A DNA stretch of 64,000 nucleotides from contig JBKQRA010000144.1 of assembly GCA_052144065.1 (NCBI GenBank), forward strand, positions 2,488 through 66,487, written 5' to 3'. Within the stretch, counting starts at the first letter, position 1, and each line of letters opens with the position of its first letter. Both the position numbers and the translations under genes were made by a program. The notes beneath the pieces are model-generated. The model was given only the letters and a program-made list of their open reading frames with translations. It made no database searches and was not told the origin of the DNA. The stretch comes from Methylovirgula sp. Lineage in GTDB: Bacteria > Pseudomonadota > Alphaproteobacteria > Rhizobiales > Beijerinckiaceae. Shown piece by piece: positions 2,288 through 20,052 of the stretch.

Positions 2288-3640
2288 TCACTTCGCCTTT
2301 GCACGCTTTTCCAGTTCGGCGATGATGTCGTCGAGCTTTTTGTCTGCCTTTTCGGCGGCGCGCCAGGCATCGCGGATCAGGCCAAGATTGCGGGCTGTCG
2401 TCTCGGCGTTCCAGCCTTCTTCGAGATGGACCAGCGCCTCGGGCAGCATTTGCTTGGCCTGCTTGAGATCGCCGGCGATGACGGCCAATTCGACGAGCGT
2501 CGCGAAATCCCAATAGTCGGCGGCGCCGCGCGCGATCTTGCGCTCCACCGCATAGCGCACGACAGGTGCGAGACGTTCGATGCGCGGATCGTCGGGATCG
2601 TTGAGCGCCATGAGGGTGAGCGCATTGATGCCTGGATAGGCATCGCGCCAATCGGCTTCAAATCCTTTGAGATAGGCGTCGATTGCCTTTTTCGCCCAGG
2701 CGGGCGCTTCAAAATCATCCGCTTTTACAGCGGCGTCCCAGCGGTCTTTGTAAACGCGGCCGAGGAGGCCGTAGGTTTCGCTCGACGCGCCGTGTTCATC
2801 GATGAGAGCGATCAAGACAGTTTCAGCCTCATGACGCTGGCCATCACGATTGAGCGCCATCGCATATTGTTCGCGCGGCATGGTCGAATGGGCGAGCACC
2901 GGGTCCATCGCCTTATAAAGTTCGATCATTTTCTTCCAGGCGCTGGCGGCGCGATAGGAAAGTAATAGATCGATGACAATGCCGGCCTGCACCACGGAAA
3001 TATCGCCGAGGTCCTTGCAGATCTGATCGAGAGCGGCGAGCCGTTCGTCACCCTTGAGGCGCCGGGCCTCGGCGAGCTTGCTCTTATAGTCGCGCGAATA
3101 GGTGACCTGCTGGCGGAAGACATCGGTCTTGCTGTGCGCGATGTCGTGCGGCTTCAGCCCGTCGATCAACTTGAAAAGGGGGCTGTCCGCTTCGCCATGC
3201 GTCTTGCAGTCATCGAGGCGCTTGGCGAGGGCCGCCCGAGCCGCCGCCGCGTCCTTGGGCCTTGCGCGCTCATCAAGACCATAGGGGAGGGTCCGCAGAT
3301 GCCCGACATCGAAGGGAAGACGGCTCGCATCGGCCGCCATCAGCACGGTCGTCTGTGGCCGCAGCGCATGCCGGACACCGAGCTCGTAATAGACATTGGG
3401 ATTGAAGATGGTGAGGTCGGCGATGGCAAATTCGCTGAGCATGAGCCGCTCATACATCGCCTTGTGGATGAGGCCGGCTTGCACCTCCTCGTCGGCGCGG
3501 ATCGGCTCGAAGCCGACATCATGGATCGCCGGTTCGATAATGTCCTTGTAAATGACGTCGAAATCGATCTCGCGGCCGGAATTGTCGGACTTTTTGCCGA
3601 ATGGCATGATGACGAAACAAATGGCACGCAGCGACAACAT
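2288..3640 (-). CDS. DUF4071 / MAP3K(ASK)-like protein: nucleoside deoxyribosyltransferase/hydrolase-like domain plus TPR-like helical domain
   Basis: CFVIMPFG...IRADEE...IADLTIFNPNVYYELGVRHA...LPFDV, then a helical region with ETYGLLGRVYKDRW, AYPGINALTL and DYWDFATLVELAV. GGAGAG RBS upstream of ATG 3640. Confidence 0.8.
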   Translation of the reverse strand: MLSLRAICFVIMPFGKKSDNSGREIDFDVIYKDIIEPAIHDVGFEPIRADEEVQAGLIHKAMYERLMLSEFAIADLTIFNPNVYYELGVRHALRPQTTVLMAADASRLPFDVGHLRTLPYGLDERARPKDAAAARAALAKRLDDCKTHGEADSPLFKLIDGLKPHDIAHSKTDVFRQQVTYSRDYKSKLAEARRLKGDERLAALDQICKDLGDISVVQAGIVIDLLLSYRAASAWKKMIELYKAMDPVLAHSTMPREQYAMALNRDGQRHEAETVLIALIDEHGASSETYGLLGRVYKDRWDAAVKADDFEAPAWAKKAIDAYLKGFEADWRDAYPGINALTLMALNDPDDPRIERLAPVVRYAVERKIARGAADYWDFATLVELAVIAGDLKQAKQMLPEALVHLEEGWNAETTARNLGLIRDAWRAAEKADKKLDDIIAELEKRAKAK

Positions 3641-3908
3641 CAGATCTCTCCGGCATTCCGTGATAATCTAGGCGTGGCAGCCGAGCTTTGGAATATGAAA
3701 AGAGCCCCGATTGGCGGCTCGGAAATCGGCGGCTTTCGCGGCGGAGAGAATAAGACGGACACGTTCCAGGAAATCCGCGCCGTCCGCGCCGTTTTAATCG
3801 GCTGGACAGGCAAGGCTCGATCGTTCTAATCCTTGCGGGCTTGCAAGCGCCGACGAAGCAATGCCGATCGCTTTGCGATGGCTTCCTTTGGACGGCGCGG
3901 GGACGATC

Positions 3909-5078
3909 ATGAGCGATGATGCGCTGACAGAAGTTGTTCTGCCGTTGCACCGCGCCGCGCCTGAGGGTTCAGCCCCTGAACAGGCGCTCGTCGCGCGCAT
4001 CATCAATGGCGATGGCAGAGTTGTCGCGGAATTTCTGCGGGCAGCAATTCCGCCGCTTCTGTCGGCGATCGCGAAGCTGGAACCGGATGCTGACGAGCAG
4101 CAGGCGGCACTGCTTTATGTTCTCGGCAAGCTCAAAGAGGATGGCTATCGACGGCTTCAGGCTTTTGATGGCCGCGCCAGCCTCGCGTCCTTTCTGCCGC
4201 TTGTCGCGCGCGAACTCTTGGCATTGCGCGCGGCCGAACGGCTGTTCGCCGATCCGCAGCAGGGCTGGACGCGCTTCAAGCGCATTTTCGATCGCGATAT
4301 CCAGACCCGCATCGCGCGGCGTTTTCCCTATGATGCGGGAACTGGGCGCTGGGAGGATATCTATCAGGATATCTGCATCAAGCTCGTCGAAGGCGATTGC
4401 CGGCGGCTGCGCGATTATGGCGGCAAGGGCAGCTTCATCGGCTTCGTGCTAAAGGTCGTCAAAAACCTTCTGAACGATGAGCTGCGCCGCGACGTTCCGC
4501 GTCGGCGCTTGCCGGCCTCGATCCTGCGCATGCCGGAGCTCGAGCAGGAAATCTACAAGGTGGTCGCCTGGGACGGCTGCGCTGCAGAAGCGGCGCGGGT
4601 GAACGATGTTTTGCGCGGAAGGCTTGCGGCCGATCCGCCGTCGGACGTGATCGGGGCGGCCTTGGTGCGCGTCACCGAAGCGATGACGACGCTTAAGACC
4701 GATGCGCATAAAAAGCCGAAAGTGGTCTCGCTCGACGCGGTCGCAAGCGCGATAGAAGGCCAGCTTCCGTCATCGGCGATGGCATCGAACCCTGAGGAAG
4801 AGCTGATGCTCGCCGAAGAGGAGCGCCAGCGCGAGGCCTTGATCGCAAGGATCCGCGCCAGCGCCGCCGAGCTTCCCGCGGAGGAGCAGCTTTATCTTCA
4901 ACTCGTTTTCGGGTCGACGGAGGGCATGCCACGCCGCAATGTGGCGCAGATCATGGGCTGTTCGGTCACCGACGTCGATCGGCTCAAGCAGAAGACGCAA
5001 CGCTGGTTCGCCAGCCTGCGTCGGGAGTTGCAAGATCACGAAGCGCGTCTCTCGCTCACAAAGTCAGATCCATCATGA
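3909..5078 (+). CDS. Sigma-70 family (ECF-like) sigma factor with tandem duplicated region 2
   Basis: Two similar blocks, KLKEDGYRRLQAFDGRASLASFL and EDIYQDICIKLVEGDCRRLRDYGGKGSFIGFV; region-3-like VVSLD; region-4 HTH ELPAEEQLYLQLVF...RRNVAQIMGCSVTDV. The ORF track starts at 3861; ATG 3909 is preferred. Confidence 0.8.
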   Translation: MSDDALTEVVLPLHRAAPEGSAPEQALVARIINGDGRVVAEFLRAAIPPLLSAIAKLEPDADEQQAALLYVLGKLKEDGYRRLQAFDGRASLASFLPLVARELLALRAAERLFADPQQGWTRFKRIFDRDIQTRIARRFPYDAGTGRWEDIYQDICIKLVEGDCRRLRDYGGKGSFIGFVLKVVKNLLNDELRRDVPRRRLPASILRMPELEQEIYKVVAWDGCAAEAARVNDVLRGRLAADPPSDVIGAALVRVTEAMTTLKTDAHKKPKVVSLDAVASAIEGQLPSSAMASNPEEELMLAEEERQREALIARIRASAAELPAEEQLYLQLVFGSTEGMPRRNVAQIMGCSVTDVDRLKQKTQRWFASLRRELQDHEARLSLTKSDPS

Positions 5079-5938
5079 CGGAAAGCTTGCATATGGCGAT
5101 TGTTGAGCTGCTCGAAGAGCTGGAATTGGAGCATGACCGCTCCGATTCCGCTGCCTTCGCGACGCTGCGCGCCCGTCTCATGGCCGATTTTTCCGACGCG
5201 CTTGCAAAGGAGGGTGATCTCGACAGCGATGGTGAGCGCCTGCTCAACGCGTTTGCCGCGCATCTTGAAGGCTGCGCGACGGAGGCGCAGCGCCAGCATT
5301 TGATCGCGGTTCTCGCGCATCGACCCGAAACGCTGGCGGCGCTTGAATCGGCGGCTGCTTTTCTGAGTGATCTCAAGCCGCATGAGGCGTCGGTGTCCGA
5401 TGCACTCTTCCGCGACGCCATGGCGGCTTTTGCACCTCAGCAAGCGTTTGTGCCCGCGGCCGTTGCTGCCGCCGTGCCGCTGCCGATCGCAGCGCGCCGG
5501 CGGGTCAATTGGCAGGTCTGGGGCGCTATGGCGGCAACGATCCTCGTCGGCGTCATCGGCGGCACGCGTCTGTGGCAGATCAATCGCACAACGTCCGACG
5601 CGACGCCGCCCAACGTCGCTGTGCATGAGCAAGCGCCGAGCACCGCGCCGGCGCCGCCACCGAACAAGGCGATTGCGCCTTTGCAGACGGCACCTGCCGT
5701 AGGGAGCGCGCCTGCGCCCGAGGCAGCGGCGCAAGGCGCATCTTCTGACTGCGCTTCGCCAACGCCGCCGACTGGTGACGCGGCGTCGAGCGATCATACG
5801 CCCCAAAAGCGCAGCCCAGCGCAATCGCAAATGCCATGTGCGCCGCACGCGCCGGCAGCGGCCGCAGCACTCCCGCATGCGCGGCAACCGCCAGTGCCGG
5901 TTGCACCCGAACCTCCCCCAAATGGGTCTCCCTACTAA
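5075..5938 (+). CDS. Putative membrane anti-sigma factor with Pro/Ala-rich extracytoplasmic tail
   Basis: ATGA overlap with the sigma gene; helical N-domain (LLNAFAAHLEG...RQHLIAVLAHRPE); single TM WQVWGAMAATILVGVIGG; low-complexity P/A tail. Confidence 0.65.
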   Translation: MTESLHMAIVELLEELELEHDRSDSAAFATLRARLMADFSDALAKEGDLDSDGERLLNAFAAHLEGCATEAQRQHLIAVLAHRPETLAALESAAAFLSDLKPHEASVSDALFRDAMAAFAPQQAFVPAAVAAAVPLPIAARRRVNWQVWGAMAATILVGVIGGTRLWQINRTTSDATPPNVAVHEQAPSTAPAPPPNKAIAPLQTAPAVGSAPAPEAAAQGASSDCASPTPPTGDAASSDHTPQKRSPAQSQMPCAPHAPAAAAALPHARQPPVPVAPEPPPNGSPY

Positions 5939-6037: not shown

Positions 6038-9000
6038 ATGTCGCGTATTTTTTTATCTCATTCCAGCAAGGATAATTTCGAGGCGCTCGCGCTGCGCGAC
6101 TTTCTCGTTGGCGAGGGCTTCGACGATGTGTTTCTCGATCTCGATCCCGATCGCGGCATTGCCGCCGGCGAGCGTTGGGAACGCGCGCTGCATGCGGCGG
6201 CCAAGCGTTGCGAAGCTGTCATCTTCTTCATTTCCGGCAATTGGCTCGCGTCCGGTTGGTGCCTGAAGGAATATTCGCTCGCCCGCGCGCTCAATAAGAA
6301 GCTCTTCGCGGTCATCATCGATCCGCAGAAGGCGATTGACGATCTGCCGCCGGAATTGGCCGGCACATGGCAGGCGGTCAATCTGACGGCCGGCCAGGAC
6401 GGCCGCATTTTCCGCGTCGAGCTGCCCGGCTCGCATGAAGAAAAGCATGTCACATTTTCGATCGATGGCTTGCGCCGGCTGAAGCACGGTCTCGATAAGG
6501 CTGGACTCGATCCGAAATTCTTCGCGTGGCCGCCGGAGGACGATCCCAAGCGCGCGCCATTTCGCGGGTTGAAGCCGCTCGAAGGCGTCGATGCCGGCAT
6601 CTTCTTCGGCCGCGATGCGCCGATCGTCGAGGCGCTTGACCGGCTGCGCGGTTTACGCGAGGCCGCGGCACCCCGTTTCCTTGCTATCCTCGGCGCCTCG
6701 GGCGCCGGCAAATCGTCGTTTCTGCGTGCCGGCCTGCTGCCGCGCCTGACGCGCGACGACGTGAACTTCCTGCCGCTGCCGCCGATCCGGCCCGAGCGCG
6801 CCGCGCTCACCGGCGAGACGGGTCTCTTGGGAACGCTCGAAAAGCTCTTTCCCCATCGCGCTCGCGCCGAGCTGCGCGCGGCGATCCTCGCCGGCGCCTC
6901 GGGCGTCCGGCCCTTGCTCGCCGAACGGGCGGGGGCCGCCTTTGCGCAGACGCTCACCGATGCGCAGCAAGGCGGAAGGCCGCCTTTGATCGTCTTTTCC
7001 GTCGATCAGGCGGAGGAGTTGTTTCGCAGCGAGGGCATGGAAGAGAGCATGGCGCTGCTCGCGCTGCTCCGCGATCTCGCGGTCGAGGATACGCCGGCCA
7101 TTGCGGTGTTGTTCGCTATCCGTTCGGATGCCTATGACGGACTTGAGAACGCCAAGCTGCTCGAAGGTCTGCCGCAGAGTACGCTGCCGCTGCTGCCCAT
7201 GCCGCGCGGCGCCTATATGGAGGTGATCGAAGGTCCGGCCCGCCGTTATGTTTCGGCCGGTGGAACGCTCGCCATCGAACCGCGGCTGACGCAAGCACTC
7301 CTTGAAGATCTGGAGCAGGGCGGCGGCAGCGATGCGCTGCCGCTCTTGGCCTTCACGCTTGAACAGCTGTTTCTGGAATATGGCGCGACGGGTGCCTTGC
7401 GCTATCAGGACTATCGCGCCTTCGGCGGTTTGCGCGGTGCCATCGACAAGGCGGTGACGCGCGCCTTTGCCCGTGCCGATGCCGATCCGCGCATTCCGCG
7501 AGAGCAGAAAAGCCGCGAAGCGCTGCTGCGGCGCGGCCTCATTCCCTGGCTCGCCGGTATTGATCCGGACAGCAAAAATCCGCGTCGCAATGTGGCGCGG
7601 CGTTCCGACATTCCCGACGAAGCAAGACCTTTGATCGATCTCTTGGTCGAGGAGCGGCTTCTCTCTACCGATACAAAGCGCATCAAAGATCCGGTGACGG
7701 GCGAAGATACGCAGATTGTCACCATTGAGCCGACGCATGAGGCTCTGCTGCGGCAATGGGGTCTGCTCGAAGGCTGGCTTGCCGAGGATCTCGGACGGCT
7801 CGCGACACTCGAAGGCGCCAAGCGCGGCGCCCGCGACTGGGATGCGAACGGCCGCGCCGATGCCTGGCTCGCCCATCATGGGCAGAGGCTCGCCGAAGCC
7901 TCGGCGCTCATCGACGAACGCCCCGACATTGCCGCCCGTTTCGATGCCGTCGACAAGGCCTATCTCGCGGCCTGCCGGAGCAAGGAAGCCGAAGAGCAAG
8001 CAAAAGAAGAGGCGCGGCGGCGCGAGCGCGAGGAAGAACAGGCGCGCCGTCTGGCCGATGCCGAAAAACTTGCCGCCGCCAATAAACGGACGGCGCAGCG
8101 CACCGGCATCGGGCTTGTCGCAGCGCTTGCGCTAGCTGGTCTCGCCGGCTGGCAAGGCTATGTCGCCACCCAGGAGAAGCAGGCGGCCTTGCAGCAGCAG
8201 CAGCGCGCCGAGAAGGATTTCAACGCGGCGAAACAGGCGATCAACGATCTCATTTTCAATGTCGCCGAACGGCTGACGGATATGGCGGGCGTGCCAATCG
8301 TCACCATTCGCCAGATTCTCGGAACCGCGAAGACGACCATCGATACGCTCGCGGCGAGCGAGCCGGACGACAAGGAATTGCAGCGCAGCCATTGGGCCAT
8401 GCTTGTCGATTTCGTCGACACCTATCTTCGGGCTGGCGATCTGGCTGACGCCAAGACCTCCGCCGATCAGGCGCTGGTCATTGCGTTGGAACTTGCCAAG
8501 GATCTCAAAAATGCCCAAGCCCAACGCGATCTGTCTGTGTCCTACAATAAGGTCGGCGATGTCTTCGTGGCCGAAGGCCATCTCAATGATGCGCTGAAGG
8601 CCTATCAGTCGGGACTTGCGGCGATCGCTCCCATCGCGAAGGCAAATCCCGGCAATGCCGGCTGGCAGTTCGATCTTGGCGTGAGCAATGAGCGGATCGG
8701 CGACGTTCAAATGGCGCAGGGCAATCTGGCCGCGGCGCTGAAATCCTTCGAGACGCGCCGCGATATCGTCGCCGCTCTCGTCAAATCCGATCCGAAGACA
8801 TTGGCATGGCAGCGCGATCTATCTGTCGCGAATGAAAAGGTCGGCGACGTGCTTGTCGCTCAAGGCCATCTGGACGATGCCTTGAAAGCCTATCAGATCT
8901 GTCTCGAGATCGCGACGAGACTTGCCGATGCCGATGCGAATAATGCCGGCTGGCAGCGTGATCTCTCTGTGGTCGACAATAAGATTGGCGACGTCCTCGT

Positions 9001-10132
9001 CGCGCAGGGTCATGTGGATGATGCGCTGCAGGCCTATCAAAAGGCGCTGGCGATCGGCGCGCGTTTGGCGAAGTCCGATCCCGACAACGCCGGCTGGCAG
9101 CGCGATCTGGCCTTCTCTTACAACAAGATCGGCGACATGCTCAAACTCCAGGGCCATCTCGCCGATGCGCTCAAATCCTACCAGGCGGGCCTTGTCATTT
9201 CGCAGCGTCTAGCGAAGTCCGATCCAGGCACGACCTTGTGGCAGCGCGACGTCTCCTTCTCCTATACGCGCATCGGCGATGTTCTAGCGGTGCAGGGACA
9301 GATCGACAATGCGCTGCAATCCTATCAAAAGGGCTTTGCGATCATCGATAGGCTCGCCAAGCTCGATCCGGCCGATGCCGGCCTGCAGCGCGAATTGTCT
9401 GTCTTCAACAATAAGCTCGGCGATATGTATGTCGCGCAGGGTAATCTTGCGCAGGCGCTGCAAGCCTATAAGTCCGGCCTCGACATCATGCAGCGGCTGG
9501 TCAAGGCCGATCCCGCCAATGCCGGCTGGCAATTCGATCTCGGCATCAGCAATGAGCGGGTAGGTGACGTTCAAATGAGCCAGAACCAGCCGGCCGAGGC
9601 GTTGAAATCCTATTCCGCCAAGCGCGACATCATCGCCGGACTGGTCAAGGCCGACCCGGGCAATGCCGCCTGGCAACGCGATCTCTCCGTCGCGATCGAA
9701 AAAATCGGCGATGCGCTGAAGACGCAGAGCCGTCTGCCCGAAGCGCTGCAGTCCTATCGGACGTGTCTCGAGATCAGACAGCGGCTCGTCAAGATCGATG
9801 CGGGGAATAGCGGGTGGCAGCGCGATCTGTCGATCGCTTATGAAAAGGTCGGCGATGTGCTGTCCTTGCAGAAGAATAATGCCGACGCGCTGCAAGCCTA
9901 TCAGGCATCATTGCAGATCCGCCGGCTTCTCGCCAAGGACAAGTCGAATGGGCAGGCGCAGATCGATCTTGTCATTGCGCTCGCCAAGGCCGCGGATCTG
10001 TCGGCCGACCCGCGGTCGAATTACCAGGAGGTTCTGACGATCCTGACCGAGCTTGACCAGCAGGGCCGGTTGACGAAAGTTCAGCAAGGCTGGATCGAGT
10101 GGGTCAAGAAGAAGCTCGCCCCATCGCAATAG
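6038..10132 (+). CDS. TIR - nSTAND1 NTPase - TM - TPR-repeat protein (NLR-like transmembrane receptor)
   Basis: TIR IFLSHSSKD...WCLKEY; APFRGLKPL; Walker A GASGAGKSS; Walker B VDQAEELF; LPLLAFTLEQLF; HEALLRQW; charged coil; TM GIGLVAALALAGLAGW; ten 48-aa repeats. Confidence 0.9.
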   Translation: MSRIFLSHSSKDNFEALALRDFLVGEGFDDVFLDLDPDRGIAAGERWERALHAAAKRCEAVIFFISGNWLASGWCLKEYSLARALNKKLFAVIIDPQKAIDDLPPELAGTWQAVNLTAGQDGRIFRVELPGSHEEKHVTFSIDGLRRLKHGLDKAGLDPKFFAWPPEDDPKRAPFRGLKPLEGVDAGIFFGRDAPIVEALDRLRGLREAAAPRFLAILGASGAGKSSFLRAGLLPRLTRDDVNFLPLPPIRPERAALTGETGLLGTLEKLFPHRARAELRAAILAGASGVRPLLAERAGAAFAQTLTDAQQGGRPPLIVFSVDQAEELFRSEGMEESMALLALLRDLAVEDTPAIAVLFAIRSDAYDGLENAKLLEGLPQSTLPLLPMPRGAYMEVIEGPARRYVSAGGTLAIEPRLTQALLEDLEQGGGSDALPLLAFTLEQLFLEYGATGALRYQDYRAFGGLRGAIDKAVTRAFARADADPRIPREQKSREALLRRGLIPWLAGIDPDSKNPRRNVARRSDIPDEARPLIDLLVEERLLSTDTKRIKDPVTGEDTQIVTIEPTHEALLRQWGLLEGWLAEDLGRLATLEGAKRGARDWDANGRADAWLAHHGQRLAEASALIDERPDIAARFDAVDKAYLAACRSKEAEEQAKEEARRREREEEQARRLADAEKLAAANKRTAQRTGIGLVAALALAGLAGWQGYVATQEKQAALQQQQRAEKDFNAAKQAINDLIFNVAERLTDMAGVPIVTIRQILGTAKTTIDTLAASEPDDKELQRSHWAMLVDFVDTYLRAGDLADAKTSADQALVIALELAKDLKNAQAQRDLSVSYNKVGDVFVAEGHLNDALKAYQSGLAAIAPIAKANPGNAGWQFDLGVSNERIGDVQMAQGNLAAALKSFETRRDIVAALVKSDPKTLAWQRDLSVANEKVGDVLVAQGHLDDALKAYQICLEIATRLADADANNAGWQRDLSVVDNKIGDVLVAQGHVDDALQAYQKALAIGARLAKSDPDNAGWQRDLAFSYNKIGDMLKLQGHLADALKSYQAGLVISQRLAKSDPGTTLWQRDVSFSYTRIGDVLAVQGQIDNALQSYQKGFAIIDRLAKLDPADAGLQRELSVFNNKLGDMYVAQGNLAQALQAYKSGLDIMQRLVKADPANAGWQFDLGISNERVGDVQMSQNQPAEALKSYSAKRDIIAGLVKADPGNAAWQRDLSVAIEKIGDALKTQSRLPEALQSYRTCLEIRQRLVKIDAGNSGWQRDLSIAYEKVGDVLSLQKNNADALQAYQASLQIRRLLAKDKSNGQAQIDLVIALAKAADLSADPRSNYQEVLTILTELDQQGRLTKVQQGWIEWVKKKLAPSQ
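8522..9958 (+). repeat. Ten in-frame 144-bp (48-aa) TPR-like repeats
   Basis: Units start at 8522, 8666, 8810 ... 9818, with consensus QRDLSVxxxKxGDVLxxQGxxxDALxxYQxxLxIxxRLAKxDPxNAGW. Confidence 0.9.
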
Positions 10133-10195: not shown

Positions 10196-12088
10196 GTGAC
10201 CGATACCAATACAGCCGAGACCGATGATGCGGTCTTGTCCACCGAGGCGATCATCAAAGCCTGCCGCGAGGCGCTTGTCGCCAATGCGCCGGAAGGCGAA
10301 GTCAGTAAGCGCCTGCGCGCCATCGAGGCCGCCGCCTGCGCCGAACCGGCGCTGCACGCGCAATGGCTTGTCGCCAAAGGCATCGCCACCAATCGGCTGG
10401 GTCTGCGCGGCGAAGCGCTGGGCGATCTCAACGAAGCCGCCGATCTCTTCGCGCAATTGAACGATGCCGCGCATGTCGCCGAGGCCAAGCGTGAAGCCGC
10501 CATTGTGCATTCCTGGTGCGGCGAAGGGCGCGAAGCCGGATTGGCGCTGTTGCGGGCGCTCGGCGAGAGCCTGTCGATCAAGGATATGACGGGGGCGGCG
10601 ATCGCACTCGCCGATGCCGGCCGTCTCGAATTGGAAATGGGCCGGCCCCGCGCTGCGGCCCCTTTGTTCGATCTCGCGCTCAAATTGCCCGGCACCGAAT
10701 TGCCGGCGGTGCAGCGCGGTCGCGCGATGGTCAATCAGTTGCAGGCGCTTGTCGCCTCCGGCCAGATCGATGCGGCCGTGACATTTCGCGCTGAGATGGC
10801 CGCTGAACTCGCTGCCGGCAATGAACGCATGCATCTTTTGACGGCGATCGAGGAGATCCGTTGCGCCAGCGCGCAAGGCGTGTTCGCGGAAGCGCATCGC
10901 GTACTCGATGCGGCGCGTCCGTTGGCGCCGGAGAGCAAAAGGTTCGAAGTCTTCGAACTCGCCGAGGCCGAGGCCGAACTCGCTCTCGCCGAAAAGAATT
11001 TCGTGCTCGCGGACGCAAAGATCAAAGACGTTATCGCCTGCTTCGCAGAGCGCGATCTCAACGGTCGCGAAGTGAAGGCGCGGCTGTTGCGCGCCAAAGC
11101 GCTCGAAGCGTTGCAGCGGCATGACGAAGCCCAACAAGTCCTCTCGACCGCGCTCCGCATCGCCGTGATGCGTGGTCTGATCGGCCACGCCGACGAAGTG
11201 CGCACCGCGCTTGCGGCCTCGGGCGGGTCGGAGAATATGGCGGCGCTCGACAGCTTCGCCGTCAGTCCGGCAGCGCAAGATCCGGGTCGCCGCTTTGTGC
11301 ATCGCAGGGCGCTGGGGGCAGGGGCGCAGGCCAGCGTCTATTGCGCCTATGATCTCGAGCTCGGCGGCGAAGTTGCGGTCAAAAGCGTCGATCTCTCGAC
11401 GCTCTATGATACTACGCAGAGAGAGATGGCGATCGAGACGGCGCGAACCGAGATCGCCGCTGCATCGCGCATCGATCATCCAGGCGTAGCCCGGGTGCGC
11501 GGCTTGATTGTGGAGCCGGCCGGCAATGTCACTTTGATTGAAGATATGATCAACGGCCCGAGCCTGCGCAGCGTCTTGCACGATCCGAGCAAGAAGGATC
11601 TCGTCAAGGGCCAGCGCGGCCTCGATCTCATCAATCGCATTGCCTATGCGCTCTCAGCCATCCATGCGGCGAAGATCGTTCATTGCGATCTCAAACCCGA
11701 CAACATCATGATGGCCGGCCCGACGCAGCCGGTCATCGTCGACTTCGGCATTGCTCTGCTTGGCCTAGGGAAGCGCTCGGGGCGCGGCACGCCGGCCTAT
11801 ATGGCGCCCGAGCAGAAAAGCGGCGGGCGGATCGACGCGCGGACCGATCTCTTCGCGCTCGGTGTCATCGCGCTTGAGTTCTACGGGATAGAGCCGAAAA
11901 TTGGCCGAAATTTTTGGGCACATGACAATGACATTACGGATTCACTGGCTGATGCCGGCGTTCCTTCGCAATGCATCAGCCTAATGCGGCGGCTCGTGGC
12001 GCCGATAAAATGGCTACGACCGCGGTCGGCTTCCGACGTGAGCCGGATCGTCGTTGCGGCTGCGGAGGCTGGGCGCCAATCACGTTGA
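10196..12088 (+). CDS. TPR-like helical domain fused to C-terminal Hanks-type Ser/Thr kinase
   Basis: GAGAQASVY loop, VAVK, HCDLKPDN, DFG, GTPAYMAPEQ, DARTDLFALG; the N-terminal ~360 aa are Ala/Leu/Glu-rich helical repeats; GTG start after GAAAGG; no TM seen. Confidence 0.88.
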   Translation: MTDTNTAETDDAVLSTEAIIKACREALVANAPEGEVSKRLRAIEAAACAEPALHAQWLVAKGIATNRLGLRGEALGDLNEAADLFAQLNDAAHVAEAKREAAIVHSWCGEGREAGLALLRALGESLSIKDMTGAAIALADAGRLELEMGRPRAAAPLFDLALKLPGTELPAVQRGRAMVNQLQALVASGQIDAAVTFRAEMAAELAAGNERMHLLTAIEEIRCASAQGVFAEAHRVLDAARPLAPESKRFEVFELAEAEAELALAEKNFVLADAKIKDVIACFAERDLNGREVKARLLRAKALEALQRHDEAQQVLSTALRIAVMRGLIGHADEVRTALAASGGSENMAALDSFAVSPAAQDPGRRFVHRRALGAGAQASVYCAYDLELGGEVAVKSVDLSTLYDTTQREMAIETARTEIAAASRIDHPGVARVRGLIVEPAGNVTLIEDMINGPSLRSVLHDPSKKDLVKGQRGLDLINRIAYALSAIHAAKIVHCDLKPDNIMMAGPTQPVIVDFGIALLGLGKRSGRGTPAYMAPEQKSGGRIDARTDLFALGVIALEFYGIEPKIGRNFWAHDNDITDSLADAGVPSQCISLMRRLVAPIKWLRPRSASDVSRIVVAAAEAGRQSR

Positions 12089-12183
12089 ACTCAAACGGTG
12101 CTTGCTTTTTGAAAAGCCACCACACACTATAGCGTTGCTCCAGTGCGTGGCTGCATGTCTTTATCTTTATTTGAGTATCGGTG

Positions 12184-14031
12184 ATGATTACAATTAGCCA
12201 CCTGTCCGGGCCGCTCGCCGGAAAAAGCCAAAGCTTTGACGATACTAAAGACAAGATTGAATTTGGACGCGAGTCAGATTGCGACGTCGTCTATCCCGCC
12301 GATGAAGAGACCATAGGCCGCCGGCACTGCGCGCTCGTACGCCAGCTGAGCGATTGGGAGCTTCATATTCATGAGGGCTCGCACGGCCTGCATTTCGTCA
12401 GCGTCAACGGTACGCCGGTTGGCGCCGATCAGCCGGTTGATCCGAATTCCGTATTTCATCTTGGCCGCAAGGATGGTCCGAGCTTCGAAGTGAAATTCGA
12501 TCAGGCCGGCCTGACACCGAACATCGGCGCGACCGGCCGCGAAGACAAATATGTGCCGCCCACCACGCAGCTTCGGCATGTGCGCATTGTCGGCGCCATC
12601 GTCGCCGTTCTCATCGTTGGTGTGCTTGGCTTCTGGTATCGCGCCTATGATGCGCAGCAAAAACAGGTCGCAGCAACAATCGCCAGTCTGACTGAAGACG
12701 AGGCGAAGGCGAAGCAAGCGCTGGCGGACAGCCAGAAGGCGGCCGCCGCCAGCATTTCGCAAAGCATCATCGACAAGGTCTGGAACGCGACCTTCCTCGT
12801 CATTCTGCAGGACGCGCAGGGCCGCAAGACGGCGCTCGGCACGGCCTGGGCGATCGGCCCGAATGTGCTCGCGACCAATGCGCATATCGCCGGCATCTGC
12901 GACGACAAATTTCCGGTGGCCGACCGCAAGATTGCCGAATGCGATGATCTGAAGCCTGGCGACAAACTCCTCGTTCTGCAATCCGGGACCGGCCATACGC
13001 CTTACGAGGTTGTCGGCCACAGCTTCCATCCGGGCTATATCGATTTCCCGAAGCTTGTGTTTGGCCAGGACCCGGCTTTCGTCGCCTCGATCTATAATGG
13101 CACCCCGAGCCAGATCAGCGGCTATGGCTATGATGTCGGCCTCTTGACGATCAAAGAGACTTTGCCGGCCGATCTTGCGCTGCAATTTGCATCGAAGGAT
13201 GAGATCCTGGCGCTGAAGCCCGGCATGCCCGTCGCCTCGGCCGGCTTCCCTTATGAGAATGTCTCAGGCGATCAGGTGCTGACGCTCGCGGCGACGCCGC
13301 AAGTCCATTATGGCAACATCACCGCCTTGACGGATTTTCTGTTCCTGCAGACCGATCCCGCGCATCGCTACCTCGTGCAGCATTCGGTGCCCGAGACGGG
13401 CGGCGGCTCAGGCAGCCCGATCGTTGCGGCCTCCGGCCATATCGTCGCGATCAACAATGCCGGCACCTTCGGTCCGAAGGGCGAGTGGAGCTATCGCGGC
13501 GCGCCGAGCGGCGTCGAGATCAATTATGCGCAGCGCGTCGATATTGTGGACGATATTTTCGCCGGTCGGGCGGCCGCGGCTTTCGAAGCCGACAAGCCCT
13601 ACTGGACTACGCAAATGGCGAATTTCAAGCGCGGTATCGATGTGATCGGCGCTTGGGTCCTGGATAAGGCGAAGCCCGATGCCAAATCAACCGCACAGCT
13701 CGTCTCGACGACGCCGGGTCAGCTGACCACAGGCGATATGCGCATCGATTCGACGACGAAGAAGAATGAGCGCATCAAGGTGCAGACGCTCAATCTGCAG
13801 GCGGGTGTTTCCTATTTCATTTTTGTGTACGCCGACAAGGAAACGCCGATCGCGGTCTATCTCAAGGACGCCAATAACCGGACCCTTGTCAGCAATACTG
13901 ACAGCCAATGGTATCCCGGCCTGTCCTTCAAGCCGACGGCATCGGGGCCTTTATCCCTAATGATCGTCGGTCCCGACCGTGATACGACTTACACAACAAA
14001 AGTGTATTCCTGGCAGCAATCGAATTCCTAA
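12184..14031 (+). CDS. FHA-like - TM - trypsin-like serine protease - C-terminal beta (PPC-like) domain, paralog 1
   Basis: FGRESDCDV...RHCAL...VNGT (FHA-like); TM IVGAIVAVLIVGVLGFWY; catalytic TNAH, YDVGLL, GGSGSP; upstream in-frame GTG at 12181. Confidence 0.85.
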   Translation: MITISHLSGPLAGKSQSFDDTKDKIEFGRESDCDVVYPADEETIGRRHCALVRQLSDWELHIHEGSHGLHFVSVNGTPVGADQPVDPNSVFHLGRKDGPSFEVKFDQAGLTPNIGATGREDKYVPPTTQLRHVRIVGAIVAVLIVGVLGFWYRAYDAQQKQVAATIASLTEDEAKAKQALADSQKAAAASISQSIIDKVWNATFLVILQDAQGRKTALGTAWAIGPNVLATNAHIAGICDDKFPVADRKIAECDDLKPGDKLLVLQSGTGHTPYEVVGHSFHPGYIDFPKLVFGQDPAFVASIYNGTPSQISGYGYDVGLLTIKETLPADLALQFASKDEILALKPGMPVASAGFPYENVSGDQVLTLAATPQVHYGNITALTDFLFLQTDPAHRYLVQHSVPETGGGSGSPIVAASGHIVAINNAGTFGPKGEWSYRGAPSGVEINYAQRVDIVDDIFAGRAAAAFEADKPYWTTQMANFKRGIDVIGAWVLDKAKPDAKSTAQLVSTTPGQLTTGDMRIDSTTKKNERIKVQTLNLQAGVSYFIFVYADKETPIAVYLKDANNRTLVSNTDSQWYPGLSFKPTASGPLSLMIVGPDRDTTYTTKVYSWQQSNS

Positions 14032-14076
14032 TTTTCTCGAGCGGCAACGCAGGCCGCAATTGTTTTGAGTTTTGCA

Positions 14077-15915
14077 ATGATCACAATAACGCATCTCTCT
14101 GGGCCGCTCGCCGGGCAAAGCCGGACGTTCGACGATAGCAAGGGCAAGATCGAATTCGGCCGTGAGTCGGGCTGCGATGTCGTCTATCCCGAGGAAACGG
14201 ATATCGTCGGGCATCGGCATTGCGCCTTGAAGTTTGAAGACGGTGACTGGCTGCTGCACTTGCACGAAAGCTCGCGCGGTATGCCGCATGTCGTTTTCGT
14301 GAATGGCACGCCGGGCGACACGGGGCAGGCGATCAATCCGAATTCCGTCCTTCATCTTGGCCGTAAGGATGGTCCCGGCTTCAGCTTCAAATTCGATCCG
14401 GTCGGGTTGGAGGAGAGCATGCTGCGGACGCGGGTCGAGGCGAAAGTCTCATCGACGCGCGACCTCTACCGCCGCCTCGCTGTGACGGGCGGCGTCATCG
14501 CGACGCTGCTGATCGTTGTCATTGGCGGCTGGATCGCCAAAAACATCGCGGATGAAAAGCAAAACGCTGCGATCTTTGCGAGCCTCGCCAAAGATCAGCA
14601 GAATGCCGCGGCGGCGATCGCGAATATGCGGACGGCCGCGGTCGCGAGCTTCTCGCCGAGCCTCATCGATCACATGGTGCACGCGACTTTCCTCGTCTAC
14701 AAGCAGGATGCGCAAGGCCGGCAATTCGCCGATGGAACGGCCTGGGTGATCGGCCCGGATCTGTTGGCGACAAACGCCCATATTGCGGCCTTATGCAGCG
14801 ACTTCCAGCCGGGTGACGACAAGCTCGCTTCTTGCGATCAGCTTGACGCTGGGCAGAAGCTTTATGTGCGACAACCCGGAGCGGGCGGAGCGTCCTATGA
14901 AGTCATCGGCCATAGCTTTCATCCGGGCTATGTCGCATTTCCGCGCTTCGTCCTGGCCAAGGATCCGGTGATTTCCACTTTTGCCGGGCCAAGACAGGTC
15001 GGCACGGATGGCTATGATGTCGGACTCTTGCGCATCAAGGGACAGTTCCCGGCGGATCTCGCGCTCAAAGTCGCCTCGAAAGAGGAACTGATGGAGTTGA
15101 AGCAGGGGACGCCACTCGCCTCGGCGGGCTATCCGAGCGAAAACATCTTCAACAGTGAGGTGCTTACGGTCGCTGCCACGCCGCAAGTCCATTACGGCAA
15201 TATCAGCGCGCTGACGGATTCGCTCTTTCTGCCGACCGATGCGGCGCATAATTTCCTCATTCAAAATTCAATTCCGATGACAGGAGGCTCGTCGGGCAGT
15301 CCGGTTATTAACACGGCAGGCCATGTCGTCGCCCTGCTGAACTCCGCTAATTTCGGTCCGGCGGCAGGCGGCTGGTCGCGTGGTGCGCCGAGCGGCGCCG
15401 AGATCAATTATGCGCAGCGCGCCGATTTCGTCGCCGATCTTCTCGCCGGCACGGCGCAAGACGTGTTTGCGAATGATTTGACTTATTGGGCCGGCCAGAT
15501 CGCCAAATTTCAGCGCGGCATCGATCTGATGAGCAAGACGCTGGTCGATCAAGCGACGCAAGGCTCGAAGGCGACGGCGCAGCTCGCGAGCGAAACGCAT
15601 GGCAAGCTTGTCGCCGACGACATGCGCATCGACTCTAAGACCAATCGCAAAGAGCGCATAAAGATCGAAAAAATCAATTTTTCGGCCGGCGTGCATTATT
15701 TGATCTTGATCTATGCGGAGAATGACGCCGCGGTTAGTCTTTATCTCAAAGACGCCAGCAACCAGACGATCGCCAACAATACCAATGCGGGATGGTACCC
15801 GAGCGTCTCCTTCAGCCCGGCGGCGAATGGGACCGGCTCTATCCTCATCGTCGGTCCGGATGCCGATACGGCCTATACGACGCGGATCTACAGCTGGCAG
15901 GCGTCCGGCTCATAA
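14077..15915 (+). CDS. FHA-like - TM - trypsin-like serine protease - C-terminal beta domain, paralog 2
   Basis: Collinear with the 12184 gene (MITITHLSGPLAG..., TNAH, YDVGLL, GSSGSP, GAPSGAEINYAQR); start chosen by alignment to paralog 1. Confidence 0.85.
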   Translation: MITITHLSGPLAGQSRTFDDSKGKIEFGRESGCDVVYPEETDIVGHRHCALKFEDGDWLLHLHESSRGMPHVVFVNGTPGDTGQAINPNSVLHLGRKDGPGFSFKFDPVGLEESMLRTRVEAKVSSTRDLYRRLAVTGGVIATLLIVVIGGWIAKNIADEKQNAAIFASLAKDQQNAAAAIANMRTAAVASFSPSLIDHMVHATFLVYKQDAQGRQFADGTAWVIGPDLLATNAHIAALCSDFQPGDDKLASCDQLDAGQKLYVRQPGAGGASYEVIGHSFHPGYVAFPRFVLAKDPVISTFAGPRQVGTDGYDVGLLRIKGQFPADLALKVASKEELMELKQGTPLASAGYPSENIFNSEVLTVAATPQVHYGNISALTDSLFLPTDAAHNFLIQNSIPMTGGSSGSPVINTAGHVVALLNSANFGPAAGGWSRGAPSGAEINYAQRADFVADLLAGTAQDVFANDLTYWAGQIAKFQRGIDLMSKTLVDQATQGSKATAQLASETHGKLVADDMRIDSKTNRKERIKIEKINFSAGVHYLILIYAENDAAVSLYLKDASNQTIANNTNAGWYPSVSFSPAANGTGSILIVGPDADTAYTTRIYSWQASGS

Positions 15916-17736: not shown

Positions 17737-20052
17737 TCAGGGCTTTGTGATCAAATCGGCGGCTTGCCAAGCGGCGAGGCCGCCTCGGTACCAATAGACG
17801 TTGGAATAGCCCATCTGCAACGCACGCAGCGCTGCATTATAGCCTTCCCATGATTTGGAATCTCTACTGAAGAATATGATAGCGGTGTTGGAGGACGTAA
17901 CTGCCTTCGACAAATCATCGAAAAGCTGCCGTTGGACTTTATCCTTAGCATCGAATGTTCCTCCCGCGCCGGCATAAGGCCAGCGAAGAGAAGACGGAAT
18001 TGTCCGTGCGTGGGGCTCACTATCAACGTCTATAAGCAATATAGATACTTTCCTGTCGGTGCCAGGGAGCTTTCCGTTTGCGAGCATATGATAAAGGTCT
18101 TGTGTTGTAATGGCATTGCCGCCAGGAATTGTTCGCGGTGTAGGACCGTTTAATTTATTCGAGAGTGCGTCTGTCGGAGCAATCTGGTCGTCTTTGTCTT
18201 CGTCTTGAAACGTTCCGACGGGCGGCGGTCCAAACTCGGCGACGATCTTGGCATTCAGCTCTTTGGCGCTTTGCTCCCCCTCATATCGCGCCTGTATCTC
18301 CTTTAGCTGCTTCACCTGCTCCTGCAACTTAACTTGTGTGCTAGCAAGTACAGCGTTCATGTTGTCGAGCGCAGCCTGACTTTTGTTTAACTGATCGATC
18401 GTTTTGTCGAGCTTGTCCTTTTGTTGCTTGAGTTCGCCGATTGTTGTTTTTAGCTTTTCGTTCGCGTGCTGAGCTACCCACCATTCCGTTCCAGCGGTCA
18501 CGGACGATGCGATCAGAATGGCAAAAATTCCCGCGCCCGATATCCAGAATAGACGCCGCCGCGCTGTTTCGGCCTTCTCGCTCTTTTCGAGAAAAGCGAC
18601 AGCATCCTTGAAATGCCCACCGTAGCGCTGAGCCCAGGCTTCGTTGGGCTTTGTCTCCTCGTACCAAGCAACAAGATTGGCAAGCTCGCGGCCGCGGATC
18701 GGTTCGGCATCCCCCATGCGGTCCTTGAGTCGACGCCAGTTCTGCGCCGCTGTCGTTTCATCGTGCAGCCATTCCGCCATTTTTTTCCACTGGCGGATCA
18801 AGCTCTCATGGCTGATGTCGATCCATTGATCGGCATCGATCGGCACGCGTTTCTCTGGGCCAGGATCGCGCAGTTCTGGTGCGAGAAAATTGCAGCCCGG
18901 CGCGCAGAAGGTATAGAGCACGTCTTCGACCGCGCGGACATTGCCGTCGCAGAGCGCGATGAGTTCGCCGAAGCGCTGCGGTCGTCGCACGGCATCGGCG
19001 ACGCTCGTGCCTGAAACGAGCGCGCGAAAGATCTTTTCGGCTGTGCCGGCGAGACCTTTCTTCGTGAGTTCCCCCAGCAAAATATTGCCGTGCGTATTGA
19101 GCGCGCCGCCCAAGCCGCCGATCGCTTTGTAGTCCGAGAGCCGTAGCTGAATATAGCCGCCGCTGCCCGTATCCTTCGCATCGAGCCAAAGCCGGTTCAG
19201 CGTATATTGCAGCAGCGGCAATTGATCCGCGCGACGGACGAGGCGATCGAGCTGATCGGCGGCCCCGCCATCGTCCCACGGCGCGAAATTGGCGAGATCG
19301 TTGAGGATCTGAGTGACTAGAGGCTCTTCGACCTTGATACCGCAGACTTCTGCCGGACCGACGATGGCGCGGCGGCACTGTTCGCGCGTCATCCGCGGCG
19401 TGAGGACCATGCCTTTGCTGATCGTCTCGGCAAGGCCCTCCATCAAGGCGCAGGCGCCGAGATATTCGGAGCGCATGGTGAGGGTGACATAGATCGGAAA
19501 TTCGGGGCTGTGTGCGCTCTCGAGCAGCAATGCGGAGAAGGCTTCAGACTCTTCCTTGCCGGCATAGTCTTGATAGCGGAACAATTCTTCGAACTGATCG
19601 ACGAGCAGCAGCAGATTGGTCTTGGGCTTCGTCGGCAGATTGCCGTCCTGGCACCATTCGATGATCGAACGTGGACCGCGGGCGAGAAAGCCACGCAATA
19701 TCTTCGTCTCGATGTCAGTCGGCTCTTTGCCCTTGGCAGTCACCTTGAGGAGTTCGCGCGCCAGATTGGTGAGCGGCGTGCTGCCGGGCCTAAAATCGAT
19801 GACGCGCCAGCGCGCGCCGGCCTGTTCCATGAGGCCGATTTCGAGCGCTTCGAGAAGGCCGGTCTTGACGATCGAGGATTTGCCGGTACCGGACGAGCCG
19901 AGGACGGCGAGAAAGCGCGTCTCGGCGAGACGATCGACGAGCGTATGGATGCAGTCTTCACGGCCGAAGAAGAGATCGGTCTCGTCGCGACGGAACGATC
20001 TTAGGCCGGGGTAGGGCGCGCGCGCGACCTCGCCCGCTATCTCGTCAAACAT
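17737..20052 (-). CDS. nSTAND1 NTPase - TM - coiled coil - rhodanese-like domain
   Basis: APYPGLRSF; Walker A GSSGTGKSS; Walker B VDQFEELF; LPLLQYTLNRLW; ISHESLIRQW; TM LFWISGAGIFAILIASSV; K/Q heptads; C-terminal PTPRTIPG...YNAALRALQMGYSNVYWYRGGLAAW. Confidence 0.88.
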   Translation of the reverse strand: MFDEIAGEVARAPYPGLRSFRRDETDLFFGREDCIHTLVDRLAETRFLAVLGSSGTGKSSIVKTGLLEALEIGLMEQAGARWRVIDFRPGSTPLTNLARELLKVTAKGKEPTDIETKILRGFLARGPRSIIEWCQDGNLPTKPKTNLLLLVDQFEELFRYQDYAGKEESEAFSALLLESAHSPEFPIYVTLTMRSEYLGACALMEGLAETISKGMVLTPRMTREQCRRAIVGPAEVCGIKVEEPLVTQILNDLANFAPWDDGGAADQLDRLVRRADQLPLLQYTLNRLWLDAKDTGSGGYIQLRLSDYKAIGGLGGALNTHGNILLGELTKKGLAGTAEKIFRALVSGTSVADAVRRPQRFGELIALCDGNVRAVEDVLYTFCAPGCNFLAPELRDPGPEKRVPIDADQWIDISHESLIRQWKKMAEWLHDETTAAQNWRRLKDRMGDAEPIRGRELANLVAWYEETKPNEAWAQRYGGHFKDAVAFLEKSEKAETARRRLFWISGAGIFAILIASSVTAGTEWWVAQHANEKLKTTIGELKQQKDKLDKTIDQLNKSQAALDNMNAVLASTQVKLQEQVKQLKEIQARYEGEQSAKELNAKIVAEFGPPPVGTFQDEDKDDQIAPTDALSNKLNGPTPRTIPGGNAITTQDLYHMLANGKLPGTDRKVSILLIDVDSEPHARTIPSSLRWPYAGAGGTFDAKDKVQRQLFDDLSKAVTSSNTAIIFFSRDSKSWEGYNAALRALQMGYSNVYWYRGGLAAWQAADLITKP

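Follow-up and report, generated by a model that had tools for sequence, protein, structure and literature searches.

Tandem duplication of sigma-2, with a degenerate first copy, in a family of ECF-like sigma factors from Methylovirgula, Bradyrhizobium and relatives

Can a sigma factor carry two sigma-2 domains one behind the other and, if so, what is the first of them for? This question is raised by a gene for a protein of 389 residues in Methylovirgula sp., located in a stretch of 64,000 nucleotides (assembly GCA_052144065.1, contig JBKQRA010000144.1, positions 2,488 to 66,487 of the forward strand) that is referred to below as the window. The original prediction, made from the letters of the window alone, had read the product as a sigma factor with two consecutive sigma-2-like blocks, only the second of them with the usual core-binding motif. 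We conclude that sigma-2 is indeed duplicated in tandem in this protein and that the first copy is degenerate, a claim borne out by profile comparison with shuffled controls and by the fold modelled for the first block. The first copy is called block 1 or sigma2' here, and the second block 2.

Two sigma-2 blocks in one protein

Both blocks contain the pattern KL.E...RRL..F/Y.G..S...F...V...LL that had been noticed at the outset, from K74 to L104 in block 1 and from K158 to L188 in block 2, at a constant offset of 84 residues. The sequence also agrees with the claim that EDxxQD occurs in the second block only, where it reads E149-D150-I-Y-Q153-D154; the corresponding stretch of block 1, predicted as EQQAALLY, is E63-Q-Q-A-A-L-L-Y70. 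The division into two blocks stood, and the boundary placed at 4200 did not, the blocks meeting some 50 nucleotides further on (limits in Table 1). A pairwise BLASTP alignment of the two halves gave 9 identities in 23 positions and 20 bits, which is weak and uninformative alone. For profile comparison, sub-alignments of each block were drawn from a family alignment of 35 sequences, in which both blocks are conserved, and compared with hhalign. The two matched with 96.6% probability and an E-value of 6.4e-10 over 46 ungapped columns (residues 62-107 against 146-191), and the remaining domain pairs of the same protein stayed below 1% probability. The real score was 53.7, compared with 11.1 +/- 2.4 for 200 column-shuffled controls (maximum 20.9) and 21.4 for a reversed control.

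The two blocks also share an insertion. From the glutamine position of sigma-2.2 to the first aromatic residue of the specificity loop there are 17 residues in both blocks, versus 13 in AlgU and in M. tuberculosis SigE, and HMMER opens a gap of 4 residues at the same place when either block is aligned to known sigma-2 domains. This common insertion, together with the strong profile match between the blocks, suggests an intragenic tandem duplication and not a fusion. A repeat at the DNA level, at an offset of 252 nucleotides, was looked for and none was found, and therefore the duplication appears to be ancient.

In the AlphaFold model, block 1 consists of helices 21-32, 36-57, 61-77 and 92-114, which is the four-helix layout of an ECF (extracytoplasmic function) sigma-2. 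Modelled alone, it reached a predicted local distance difference test score (pLDDT) of 94.1 and a predicted template modelling score (pTM) of 0.85. When this isolated model was compared with the PDB by Foldseek, the top 19 matches were all ECF sigma-2 domains, among them E. coli sigmaE region 2, AlgU, M. tuberculosis sigmaH, SigW, Bartonella EcfG and SigK. Match probabilities were 0.75-1.00 and the alignments spanned 88-95 of 96 columns; the best match was to sigmaE region 2 (2map; TM-score 0.68/0.68, root-mean-square deviation 2.4 A, 88 columns). The block 1 profile matched PDB sequences weakly (E 0.02-0.7), and 7 of the 10 matches were sigma factors (AlgU, sigmaH, sigmaF, SigC, sigmaE region 2 and sigmaK among them), in register from the N-terminus of sigma-2. 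Its consensus in the 35-sequence alignment, SExALVAxVxAGDxxAAAxFL...EAAFLxVxxxLKADGYxRLRAFDGRARLxTFLALVARDLLAER, retains the ECF-type N-terminal helix LVxxxxxGD. Profile comparison and model together show block 1 to be a whole sigma-2 fold of the ECF type, paralogous to block 2, and not a helix of the region 1.2 type.

Searches with domain profiles gave a poorer picture. The window protein gave two sigma matches in Pfam, both short of their gathering scores: Sigma70_r2, once only, at residues 134-194 (22.4 bits where 24 are required) and, weakly, Sigma70_r4_2 at residues 337-359 (E 0.017). Pfam matched nothing in residues 1-130, there was no match to Sigma70_r1_2 or Sigma70_r3 at E <= 1, and Response_reg was not matched anywhere in the protein. 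The NCBIfam profile TIGR02937 (sigma70-ECF) reached 53 bits over residues 141-366 (cutoff 42.9), and weak matches to FliA/WhiG and SigB/F/G, driven by sigma-4, lay far under their cutoffs. Two Sigma70_r2 matches had been proposed as the check on the duplication, with a single match and a first block of the region 1.2 type as its refutation. The search did return a single match, as that rule has it. The rule was too strict: HMMER profiles are too insensitive for detecting the kinship of block 1 with sigma-2, isolated block 1 sequences giving a faint Sigma70_r2 match in only 2 of 22 cases, and the block itself, as modelled, is a complete four-helix ECF sigma-2 homologous to block 2.

Two other explanations of the likeness between the blocks have to be weighed at this point. 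One is chance or composition, given helices rich in Ala, Leu and Arg and a GC-rich genome. A BLASTP alignment of just 20 bits over 23 residues and the missing DNA repeat would suit it, and yet the shuffled and reversed controls reach only about 21 against 53.7, the other helical regions of the same protein stay below 1% probability, block 1 has an independent structural match to sigma-2, and both blocks are kept across 153 representatives of the family. The profile, control and structure results have already refuted chance likeness, and we regard it as essentially excluded, indeed as scarcely credible. The other is that block 1 is an extension resembling region 1.2 plus the non-conserved region, so that the protein would be group 3-like (1.2-2-3-4) and not an ECF sigma with a duplication. 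The missing Sigma70_r1_2 and Sigma70_r3 matches speak against this, as do the matches of block 1 alone to ECF sigma-2 only and over its full length, its LVxxxxxGD helix, its E-value of 6e-10 to block 2, the common insertion of four residues, and family members that are short and have no middle domain. It could draw on the lone Sigma70_r2 stretch, the weak FliA/WhiG and SigB/F/G matches, the label 'primary sigma factor' given to some homologues by the Joint Genome Institute (JGI), and the full-length model (mean pLDDT 85.1, overall pTM 0.54), which in Foldseek searches of the PDB aligned best end to end, over about 400 columns, with sigmaA, sigmaS, sigma28 and sigmaB; those alignments, however, have E-values of at least 2e-3 and a TM-score of about 0.2. 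From the model, block 1 seems to lie topologically where other sigma factors have region 1.2 and the non-conserved region, homology not being implied by so weak an end-to-end match, and we consider an extension of that kind very improbable and essentially excluded.

Functional sites, layout and extent of the family

The residue register of both blocks was mapped onto N88, I91 and the beta' coiled-coil contacts of sigmaH (PMC6411747). Sigma factors at large conserve the sigma-2 residues that make these coiled-coil contacts, and sigmaH reads the -10 element with its specificity loop together with W81, I85, the wedge residue N88 (R or H in other ECF sigmas) and I91/N92 (PMC6411747). Block 2 is made up of helices 116-138, 146-168 and 176-198, with the consensus W.RF.R.F..DIRRR.A.RFP......D.YQDIC.KLVEDD.RRLR.Y.G.GSF.GFVLT.V.RLLID..RRD.PRRR, and its profile matches the sigma-2 of M. 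tuberculosis SigE in register (E 0.009). D150, Q153, R166, G174, G178, D190 and R193 are invariant, and the positions that would read the -10 element hold F/Y179, V183 and N or R at 186. Because block 2 keeps both the DxxQ motif for the beta' coiled-coil and the aromatic, hydrophobic and N/R wedge residues for the -10 element, we read it, from its sequence, as the working sigma-2. It has no helix alpha1 of its own, the short LVxxxxxGD helix being absent.

Block 1 differs at exactly these sites. A66, A67 and L69 replace DxxQ, an acidic residue (D/E102) stands at the wedge position and A105 at the position of sigmaH I91, and judged by these residues the block is degenerate at the core-binding site and at the -10 site alike. 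Its scaffold positions L75, R82, L83, F86, G88, R89, F/Y95, V99 and L103-L104 are retained and R101 is invariant, with F86, G88 and R89 present in at least 97% of members. In conservation block 1 comes close to block 2 (mean column entropy 1.51 versus 1.24 bits), and it is not acidic, its mean net charge being +1.3. There is no conserved Ser or Thr in the helix equivalent to sigma-2.2 (EAAFLxV). The junction between the blocks is a break of one residue between helices 92-114 and 116-138, modelled with a pLDDT of 92-96, and its sequence is not conserved in the family alignment. If the model is right, so rigid a junction argues against pro-sigma-type processing between the blocks.

Translation from 3909, as originally predicted, was upheld: the N-terminus MSDDALTEV fits those of homologues in the family alignment (MSDHALTKF, MGDDTLTKF), and GGGA(G/A) stands at the place of the Shine-Dalgarno-like sequence in Methylovirgula homologues. 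For the rest of the protein the predicted domain order held only in part. The helix-turn-helix (HTH) of region 4 at the end was recovered, and PF08281 matches are precomputed on some homologues. An insert of 68 residues after block 2 had been overlooked. It opens with an invariant PRRRLP directly after sigma-2.4, has no match when its profile is searched against PDB sequences, gives faint Sigma70_r4_2 matches in 6 of 21 members, and may represent either a sigma-3-like domain or a second, degenerate sigma-4. A nested order sigma2'-sigma2-sigma4'-sigma4 was tried on this account; hhalign aligned insert and sigma-4 in register at below 1% probability and no PDB sequence matched, and the idea remains a lead. 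The VVSLD described as region-3-like is present at residues 277-281, in a linker of low model confidence that is followed, as stated, by the HTH. This linker takes the role of the linker between sigma-2 and sigma-4 in ECF sigmas and is region 3.2-like.

With a working sigma-2 that has the core-binding and region 2.4 residues, and with a sigma-4 HTH, the protein is an ECF-like or group 4-like sigma factor. It departs from a strict ECF definition of sigma-2 plus sigma-4 only, through its extra folded N-terminal domain and the insert at the sigma-3 position. Nor does it resemble groups 1-3, in that region 1.2 and sigma-3 were not recognisable by profile in the window protein.

A first database search gave 54 clusters of homologues of 330-460 residues, mostly unnamed or labelled 'hypothetical protein' or 'primary sigma factor'. 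When 1.84 billion representatives were then searched exhaustively with a profile, 153 proteins passed E <= 1e-30 and 582 passed E <= 1e-10; the majority are 350-390 residues long and cover profile positions of about 20-380 in one stretch. Reference genomes with the family are Methylovirgula metagenome-assembled genomes (MAGs), cultured Bradyrhizobium (B. jicamae PAC68, B. lablabi CCBAU 23086 and others), Xanthobacteraceae MAGs and Marinicaulis. Block 1 is kept in all clades, even in members at 32% identity, and Pfam never found more than one sigma-2 in any family member tested. Because the Pfam scores of the sigma domains lie mostly around or below the gathering thresholds, these proteins are annotated as hypothetical or as generic sigma factors, and classification pipelines that rely on Pfam matches have probably missed the family. 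In the published literature we found no description of a duplicated sigma-2. Mutual-information analysis of coevolution, applied to the contact surface of block 1 (116 sequences, effective number 87), was dominated by phylogenetic noise.

Several variants were seen. In a short subfamily of about 295-320 residues the insert is missing, and a short linker leads from the two blocks to sigma-4. Five proteins (P0060, P0092, P0099, P0100 and P0109) begin inside the last helix of block 1, at the boundary of block 2, and one of them starts with a residue other than Met; they are probably truncated or mis-started gene calls and not natural variants without block 1, and the alternative is that they may be short isoforms from an internal start. 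In a single representative of 514 residues (P0195), block 1 and block 2 are followed by a C-terminal domain resembling S-adenosylmethionine methyltransferases, with no detectable sigma-4, which suggests that the double sigma-2 unit can be reused outside sigma factors.

The putative anti-sigma partner and the neighbourhood

The gene that follows (Table 1) is translationally coupled to the sigma gene through the ATGA overlap, and its product is a putative anti-sigma factor. Of 22 loci, 20 have a homologous partner of 240-310 codons that follows the sigma gene, overlapping or abutting it; for L021 and L022, which are the most divergent, BLAST gave no partner match. The first 50 or so residues of the partner are conserved (MxERLxxEIxxLL...LRARL...E.L) and lead into a segment LAA(Y/F)LDGxLSxxER...L..DPxxRAEL without the zinc site HxxxCxxC. 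This LAA(Y/F)LDGxL segment resembles the domain of class I anti-sigma factors. Faint zf-HC2 matches were obtained for 5 of 13 partners (best E 0.019). Searching the profile of the cytoplasmic part against PDB sequences returned Protein A and designed helical repeats, which were set aside as spurious. The window partner has a transmembrane helix at about residues 148-166, and the variant at locus L005 has none. The Pro/Ala-rich extracytoplasmic tail, the C-terminal third, is poorly conserved except for two cysteines ('sC' and 'DPC') kept across clades, possibly a disulfide or redox-sensing element or a metal-binding one. In one protein of 686 residues (P0056), double-sigma-2 sigma factor and partner are naturally fused, the partner's transmembrane helix and cysteine tail included; unless this protein is an artefact of sequencing or gene calling, it supports physical pairing of the two proteins as Rosetta-stone evidence.

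Table 1. Features of the sigma factor locus in the window (nucleotide positions of the window; residues of the sigma factor).
Feature	Position	Strand	Residues	Remarks
RyR-domain protein	72-2279	+
TIR-like / MAP3K_TRAF_bd / TPR-S protein	2288-3640	-		450 residues; Pfam; PADLOC 'Effector TIR' at the N-terminus, E 1.9e-9; divergent; kept in the Methylovirgula clade
Conserved block CTGGACAG-N15-TCTAAT	3802-3830	+		Candidate promoter; in 4 of 5 Methylovirgula-clade upstream regions
Shine-Dalgarno-like GGGGA	3899-3903	+		5 nt upstream of the ATG at 3909; read from sequence
Sigma factor gene	3909-5078 (open reading frame 3861-5078)	+	1-389	Layout sigma2'-sigma2-insert-linker-sigma4
Block 1 (sigma2')	3969-4250	+	21-114	Predicted four-helix ECF sigma-2 fold; DxxQ and -10 wedge residue lost
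Block 2 (predicted functional sigma-2)	4254-4502	+	116-198	Three long helices; E149-D150-x-x-Q153-D154 and N186/D190/R193 kept
Three-helix insert	4503-4706	+	199-266	Helices 210-221, 228-235 and 245-266; pLDDT about 90; at the sigma-3 position
Flexible linker	4707-4790	+	267-294	Conserved VSLD (277-281) and PTPEE; pLDDT below 50 at 268-278 and 283-291
Sigma-4 with HTH	4791-5060	+	295-384	Helices 295-319, 324-335, 342-349 and 353-384; pLDDT about 90-97
Partner gene	5075-5938	+		287 residues; ATGA overlap with the sigma gene; putative single-pass anti-sigma factor
TIR-nSTAND1-TPR protein	6038-10132	+		1364 residues; Pfam nSTAND1 (2.9e-63), TIR_2 and TPR; in some Methylovirgula-clade loci only
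TPR-Ser/Thr kinase	10196-12088	+		630 residues; Pfam Pkinase (1.6e-30); kept with sigma and partner in the Methylovirgula clade only
FHA-trypsin-like protease	12181-14031	+		616 residues; Pfam FHA and Trypsin_2; directly after the kinase
Paralogous trypsin-like protease	14065-15915	+		616 residues; 54% identical to the product of 12181-14031
nSTAND1-Rhodanese protein; TIR-domain protein	17737-20052; 20037-21611	-		Island of conflict-system-type genes

In the window this pair belongs to an island of genes of the conflict-system type, which includes the RyR, TIR-like/TPR-S, nSTAND1-Rhodanese and TIR-domain genes. The genes around the pair differ between clades. Methylovirgula-clade loci keep the RyR gene, sigma, partner, kinase and trypsin-like protease, with the TIR-STAND gene optional, and the protease follows the kinase in loci L001-L003, L009 and L011. 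The succession of a TPR-kinase and a protease with FHA, a phospho-threonine-binding domain, looks like a kinase-to-FHA-protease relay. Bradyrhizobium loci have instead a caspase-like Peptidase_C14 gene, Xanthobacteraceae MAGs a divergent ARPP-1 gene, and L005 nSTAND1 only. Control by the kinase was considered as a general reason for the duplication and ruled out, since the kinase is found in the Methylovirgula clade only and the double sigma-2 in every clade. PADLOC recognised no known defence system as a whole and none covering sigma and partner, and a literature search on nSTAND1 or TPR-S together with a sigma factor gave nothing relevant. ECF sigma factors adjoining caspase systems have been noted in comparative genomics (PMC8195603).

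Upstream of the sigma gene, where an autoregulated ECF sigma would have a promoter with an AAC-type -35 and a CGT-type -10 element, the conserved blocks are clade-specific, differ between clades and do not recur ahead of the accessory genes, and no consensus match was found. The block in the window can be written in a sigma-70-like form as TGGACA-N16-TCTAAT and fails a scan with the sigma-70 consensus because position 2 of its second hexamer is C. Six Bradyrhizobium loci (L012, L013, L016, L017, L019 and L020) share a strongly conserved CATAAT(C/G)TCGCC(A/G)GATTG about 100-170 nucleotides upstream of the sigma start (at 6745-6761 in L012), and ahead of that gene the same six also carry ACCAGTTGTTT twice, as direct repeats. 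Neither the block nor the repeats were found elsewhere in those loci, and they are possibly regulator-binding or promoter elements.

What the first copy may do

Taking these results together, we favour a reading that we hold to be on the probable side, with modest conviction: an ECF core would carry a pseudo-sigma-2 as a buttress and docking module, and the sigma factor would be held by its partner until the neighbouring conflict modules release it. An ancient intragenic duplication of sigma-2 would have given rise to the tandem sigma2'-sigma2 module. Block 1 would then be a structurally integrated, permanent pseudo-sigma-2 on the N-terminal side of the working sigma-2, completing or buttressing it; the lack of a first helix in block 2 speaks for block 1 as a lasting part of the structure. 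Its most likely use would be as a docking surface for the extra conserved N-terminal segment, about 50 residues long, of the membrane partner. Partner binding was also among the roles that the original prediction listed for the first copy, and it is plausible. The partner would keep the sigma factor inactive, and action on the partner by conflict-type modules encoded nearby would free the sigma, with a transcriptional output. In Bradyrhizobium the module would be a caspase-like protease and, in Methylovirgula, a kinase and trypsin-like proteases (one with FHA in the window), TIR-STAND being present or absent. To go by the residues it carries, block 1 probably does not serve as a further reader of the -10 element.

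A number of points weigh against this reading. The role and the binding target of block 1 are inferred only, and the block could equally mask the beta'-binding helix and be autoinhibitory, in a full-length model with an overall pTM of 0.54. Its specificity-loop-like F86-x-G88-R89, the aromatic residue at 95 and the invariant R101 may leave it able to bind nucleic acid. The Foldseek E-values of block 1 are all at least 0.06 and individually non-significant, because the domain is short; what argues for a sigma-2 fold in the model is the probability, the TM-score, the full-length coverage and the uniformity of the matches. The anti-sigma assignment comes from weak profile matches (best E 0.019), topology and gene linkage. 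Finally, no promoter motif was found that is common to the clades or that links the sigma gene to the accessory genes.

Perhaps block 1 is, then, an autoinhibitory domain lying over the beta'-binding helix or the DNA face of block 2, or over sigma-4, and displaced by phosphorylation, proteolysis or exchange of partners. N-terminal extensions do inhibit DNA contact in some sigma factors, with SigC and region 1.1 as examples (PMC7826278). The rigid and confidently modelled junction would suit such a lid, and a kinase, an FHA-protease and caspase-like proteases adjoin the sigma genes. The same junction, however, parts the helices by a single residue, at pLDDT above 90, and is not a cleavable linker; the net charge of +1.3 is unlike that of the DNA-mimicking region 1.1, the kinase is clade-specific, the family already has a dedicated anti-sigma-like partner, and block 1 looks permanent, with block 2 lacking a first helix of its own. 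We regard autoinhibition as unlikely. Rather doubtful, to a slightly greater degree, is a role as a second reader of single-stranded DNA, in which block 1 would hold a flipped base or contact the discriminator downstream of the -10 element and so confer an extended or bipartite -10 specificity. Here the retained F86, G88 and R89, the aromatic 95 and R101 count in its favour, together with a position topologically that of region 1.2, which in sigmaA forms base pockets and buttresses the specificity loop (PMC6411747). The acidic D/E102 at the wedge position disfavours a second -10 reader, as does the alanine at the position of sigmaH I91, and the regions ahead of the sigma genes gave no extended promoter element conserved across clades. 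A wider proposal, which we put forward as tentative and on the whole unlikely, is that the family is a distinct, previously unrecognised class of initiation factor. Its pseudo-sigma-2 would be a built-in equivalent of region 1.2 and the non-conserved region, pre-organising the specificity loop or reading extra non-template bases, and at the same time the receiver of signals from conflict systems. By way of the sigma factor and its anti-sigma partner, caspase-like proteases, TIR-STAND NTPases and kinase/FHA-protease modules would switch on an immune or stress regulon of their own.

The reading of block 1 as buttress and docking module can be set against known systems. The pair resembles canonical ECF/anti-sigma pairs (E. 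coli sigmaE-RseA, P. aeruginosa AlgU-MucA and B. subtilis SigW-RsiW) in its ECF core and its downstream single-pass membrane partner, and block 1 superposes on the sigma-2 of sigmaE, AlgU and SigW. Unlike them it has an extra sigma-2 fold, the 68-residue insert, Pfam domain scores below gathering in the window protein, and a partner that lacks the zinc-binding H/C motif and has an additional N-terminal segment. In the alphaproteobacterial general stress response, PhyR is a receiver-domain protein that mimics sigma-2 and sigma-4 and offers a binding surface to the anti-sigma factor, without being a working sigma. Partner switching is mentioned in the ECF reclassification (PMC7826278). A degenerate sigma-like domain is likewise found here, whereas only sigma-2 is copied, in cis in a functional sigma factor, and there is no receiver domain. 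In ECF43 sigma factors (EcfP-PknT, EcfK-PknS), phosphate added by a Ser/Thr kinase substitutes for missing acidic residues in sigma-2.2. The window and its nearest relatives keep a kinase gene beside the sigma gene, and most family clades are without one. Kinase-associated groups are listed in the ECF reclassification (PMC7826278). A phospho-switch in the style of ECF43 was considered and is not indicated, because block 2 keeps the acidic DxxQD (E149, D150, Q153 and D154), and the equivalent helix of block 1 has no conserved Ser or Thr.

ECF-type sigma factors with an inhibitor reportedly stand beside caspase-like or other proteases and immune-type modules in CalpL-CalpT-CalpS and in the DdvS-DdvA module of Myxococcus. 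For the type III-E CRISPR module Csx29-Csx30-CASP-sigma, experiments have established that the CHAT protease cleaves a sigma-binding inhibitor and that an ECF-like sigma is released (PMC10028731). The locus described here is alike in having sigma and putative inhibitor beside protease and immune genes. It differs from such protease-linked or defence-linked ECF modules in that neither CRISPR nor CBASS is present at the locus, the neighbours being Peptidase_C14, TIR-nSTAND1-TPR, TPR-kinase, FHA-trypsin or ARPP-1 by clade. In the accessible parts of the papers on Csx29-, CalpL- or DdvS-type modules, no double sigma-2 is reported. N-terminal extensions of ECF sigmas are rare, generally short and in no case sigma-2-like in the 2021 reclassification (PMC7826278), which names BldN (ECF121, a pro-sigma), M. 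tuberculosis SigC (ECF36s4) and the long isoforms of sigmaR'/SigH. The family shares with these an extra N-terminal segment that is presumed to be regulatory. Here, however, it would be a folded sigma-2 paralogue of about 95 residues, rigidly joined, unlike a cleavable pro-peptide. In sigmaA and sigma70, region 1.2 and the non-conserved region lie at the same position, N-terminal to region 2.1; block 1 differs in having no Sigma70_r1_2 match and a predicted four-helix sigma-2 fold. Region 1.2 of sigmaA buttresses the specificity loop and reads the discriminator (PMC6411747).

ECF sigma factors are defined by a minimal two-domain architecture and are widely used as orthogonal parts in synthetic biology, and a conserved family with a second, non-canonical sigma-2 would represent a new way to build or regulate a sigma factor. 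The absence of region 1.2 leaves the specificity loop of sigmaH disordered (PMC6411747), and the double sigma-2 would bear on how ECF sigmas manage without that region. It would also add an in-cis case to the mimics of sigma domains such as PhyR. From the constant placement of these genes beside caspase-like, TIR-STAND, kinase or ARPP-1 genes, the family may give conflict systems of bacteria an output arm in transcription, and its presence in cultured Bradyrhizobium makes this directly testable.

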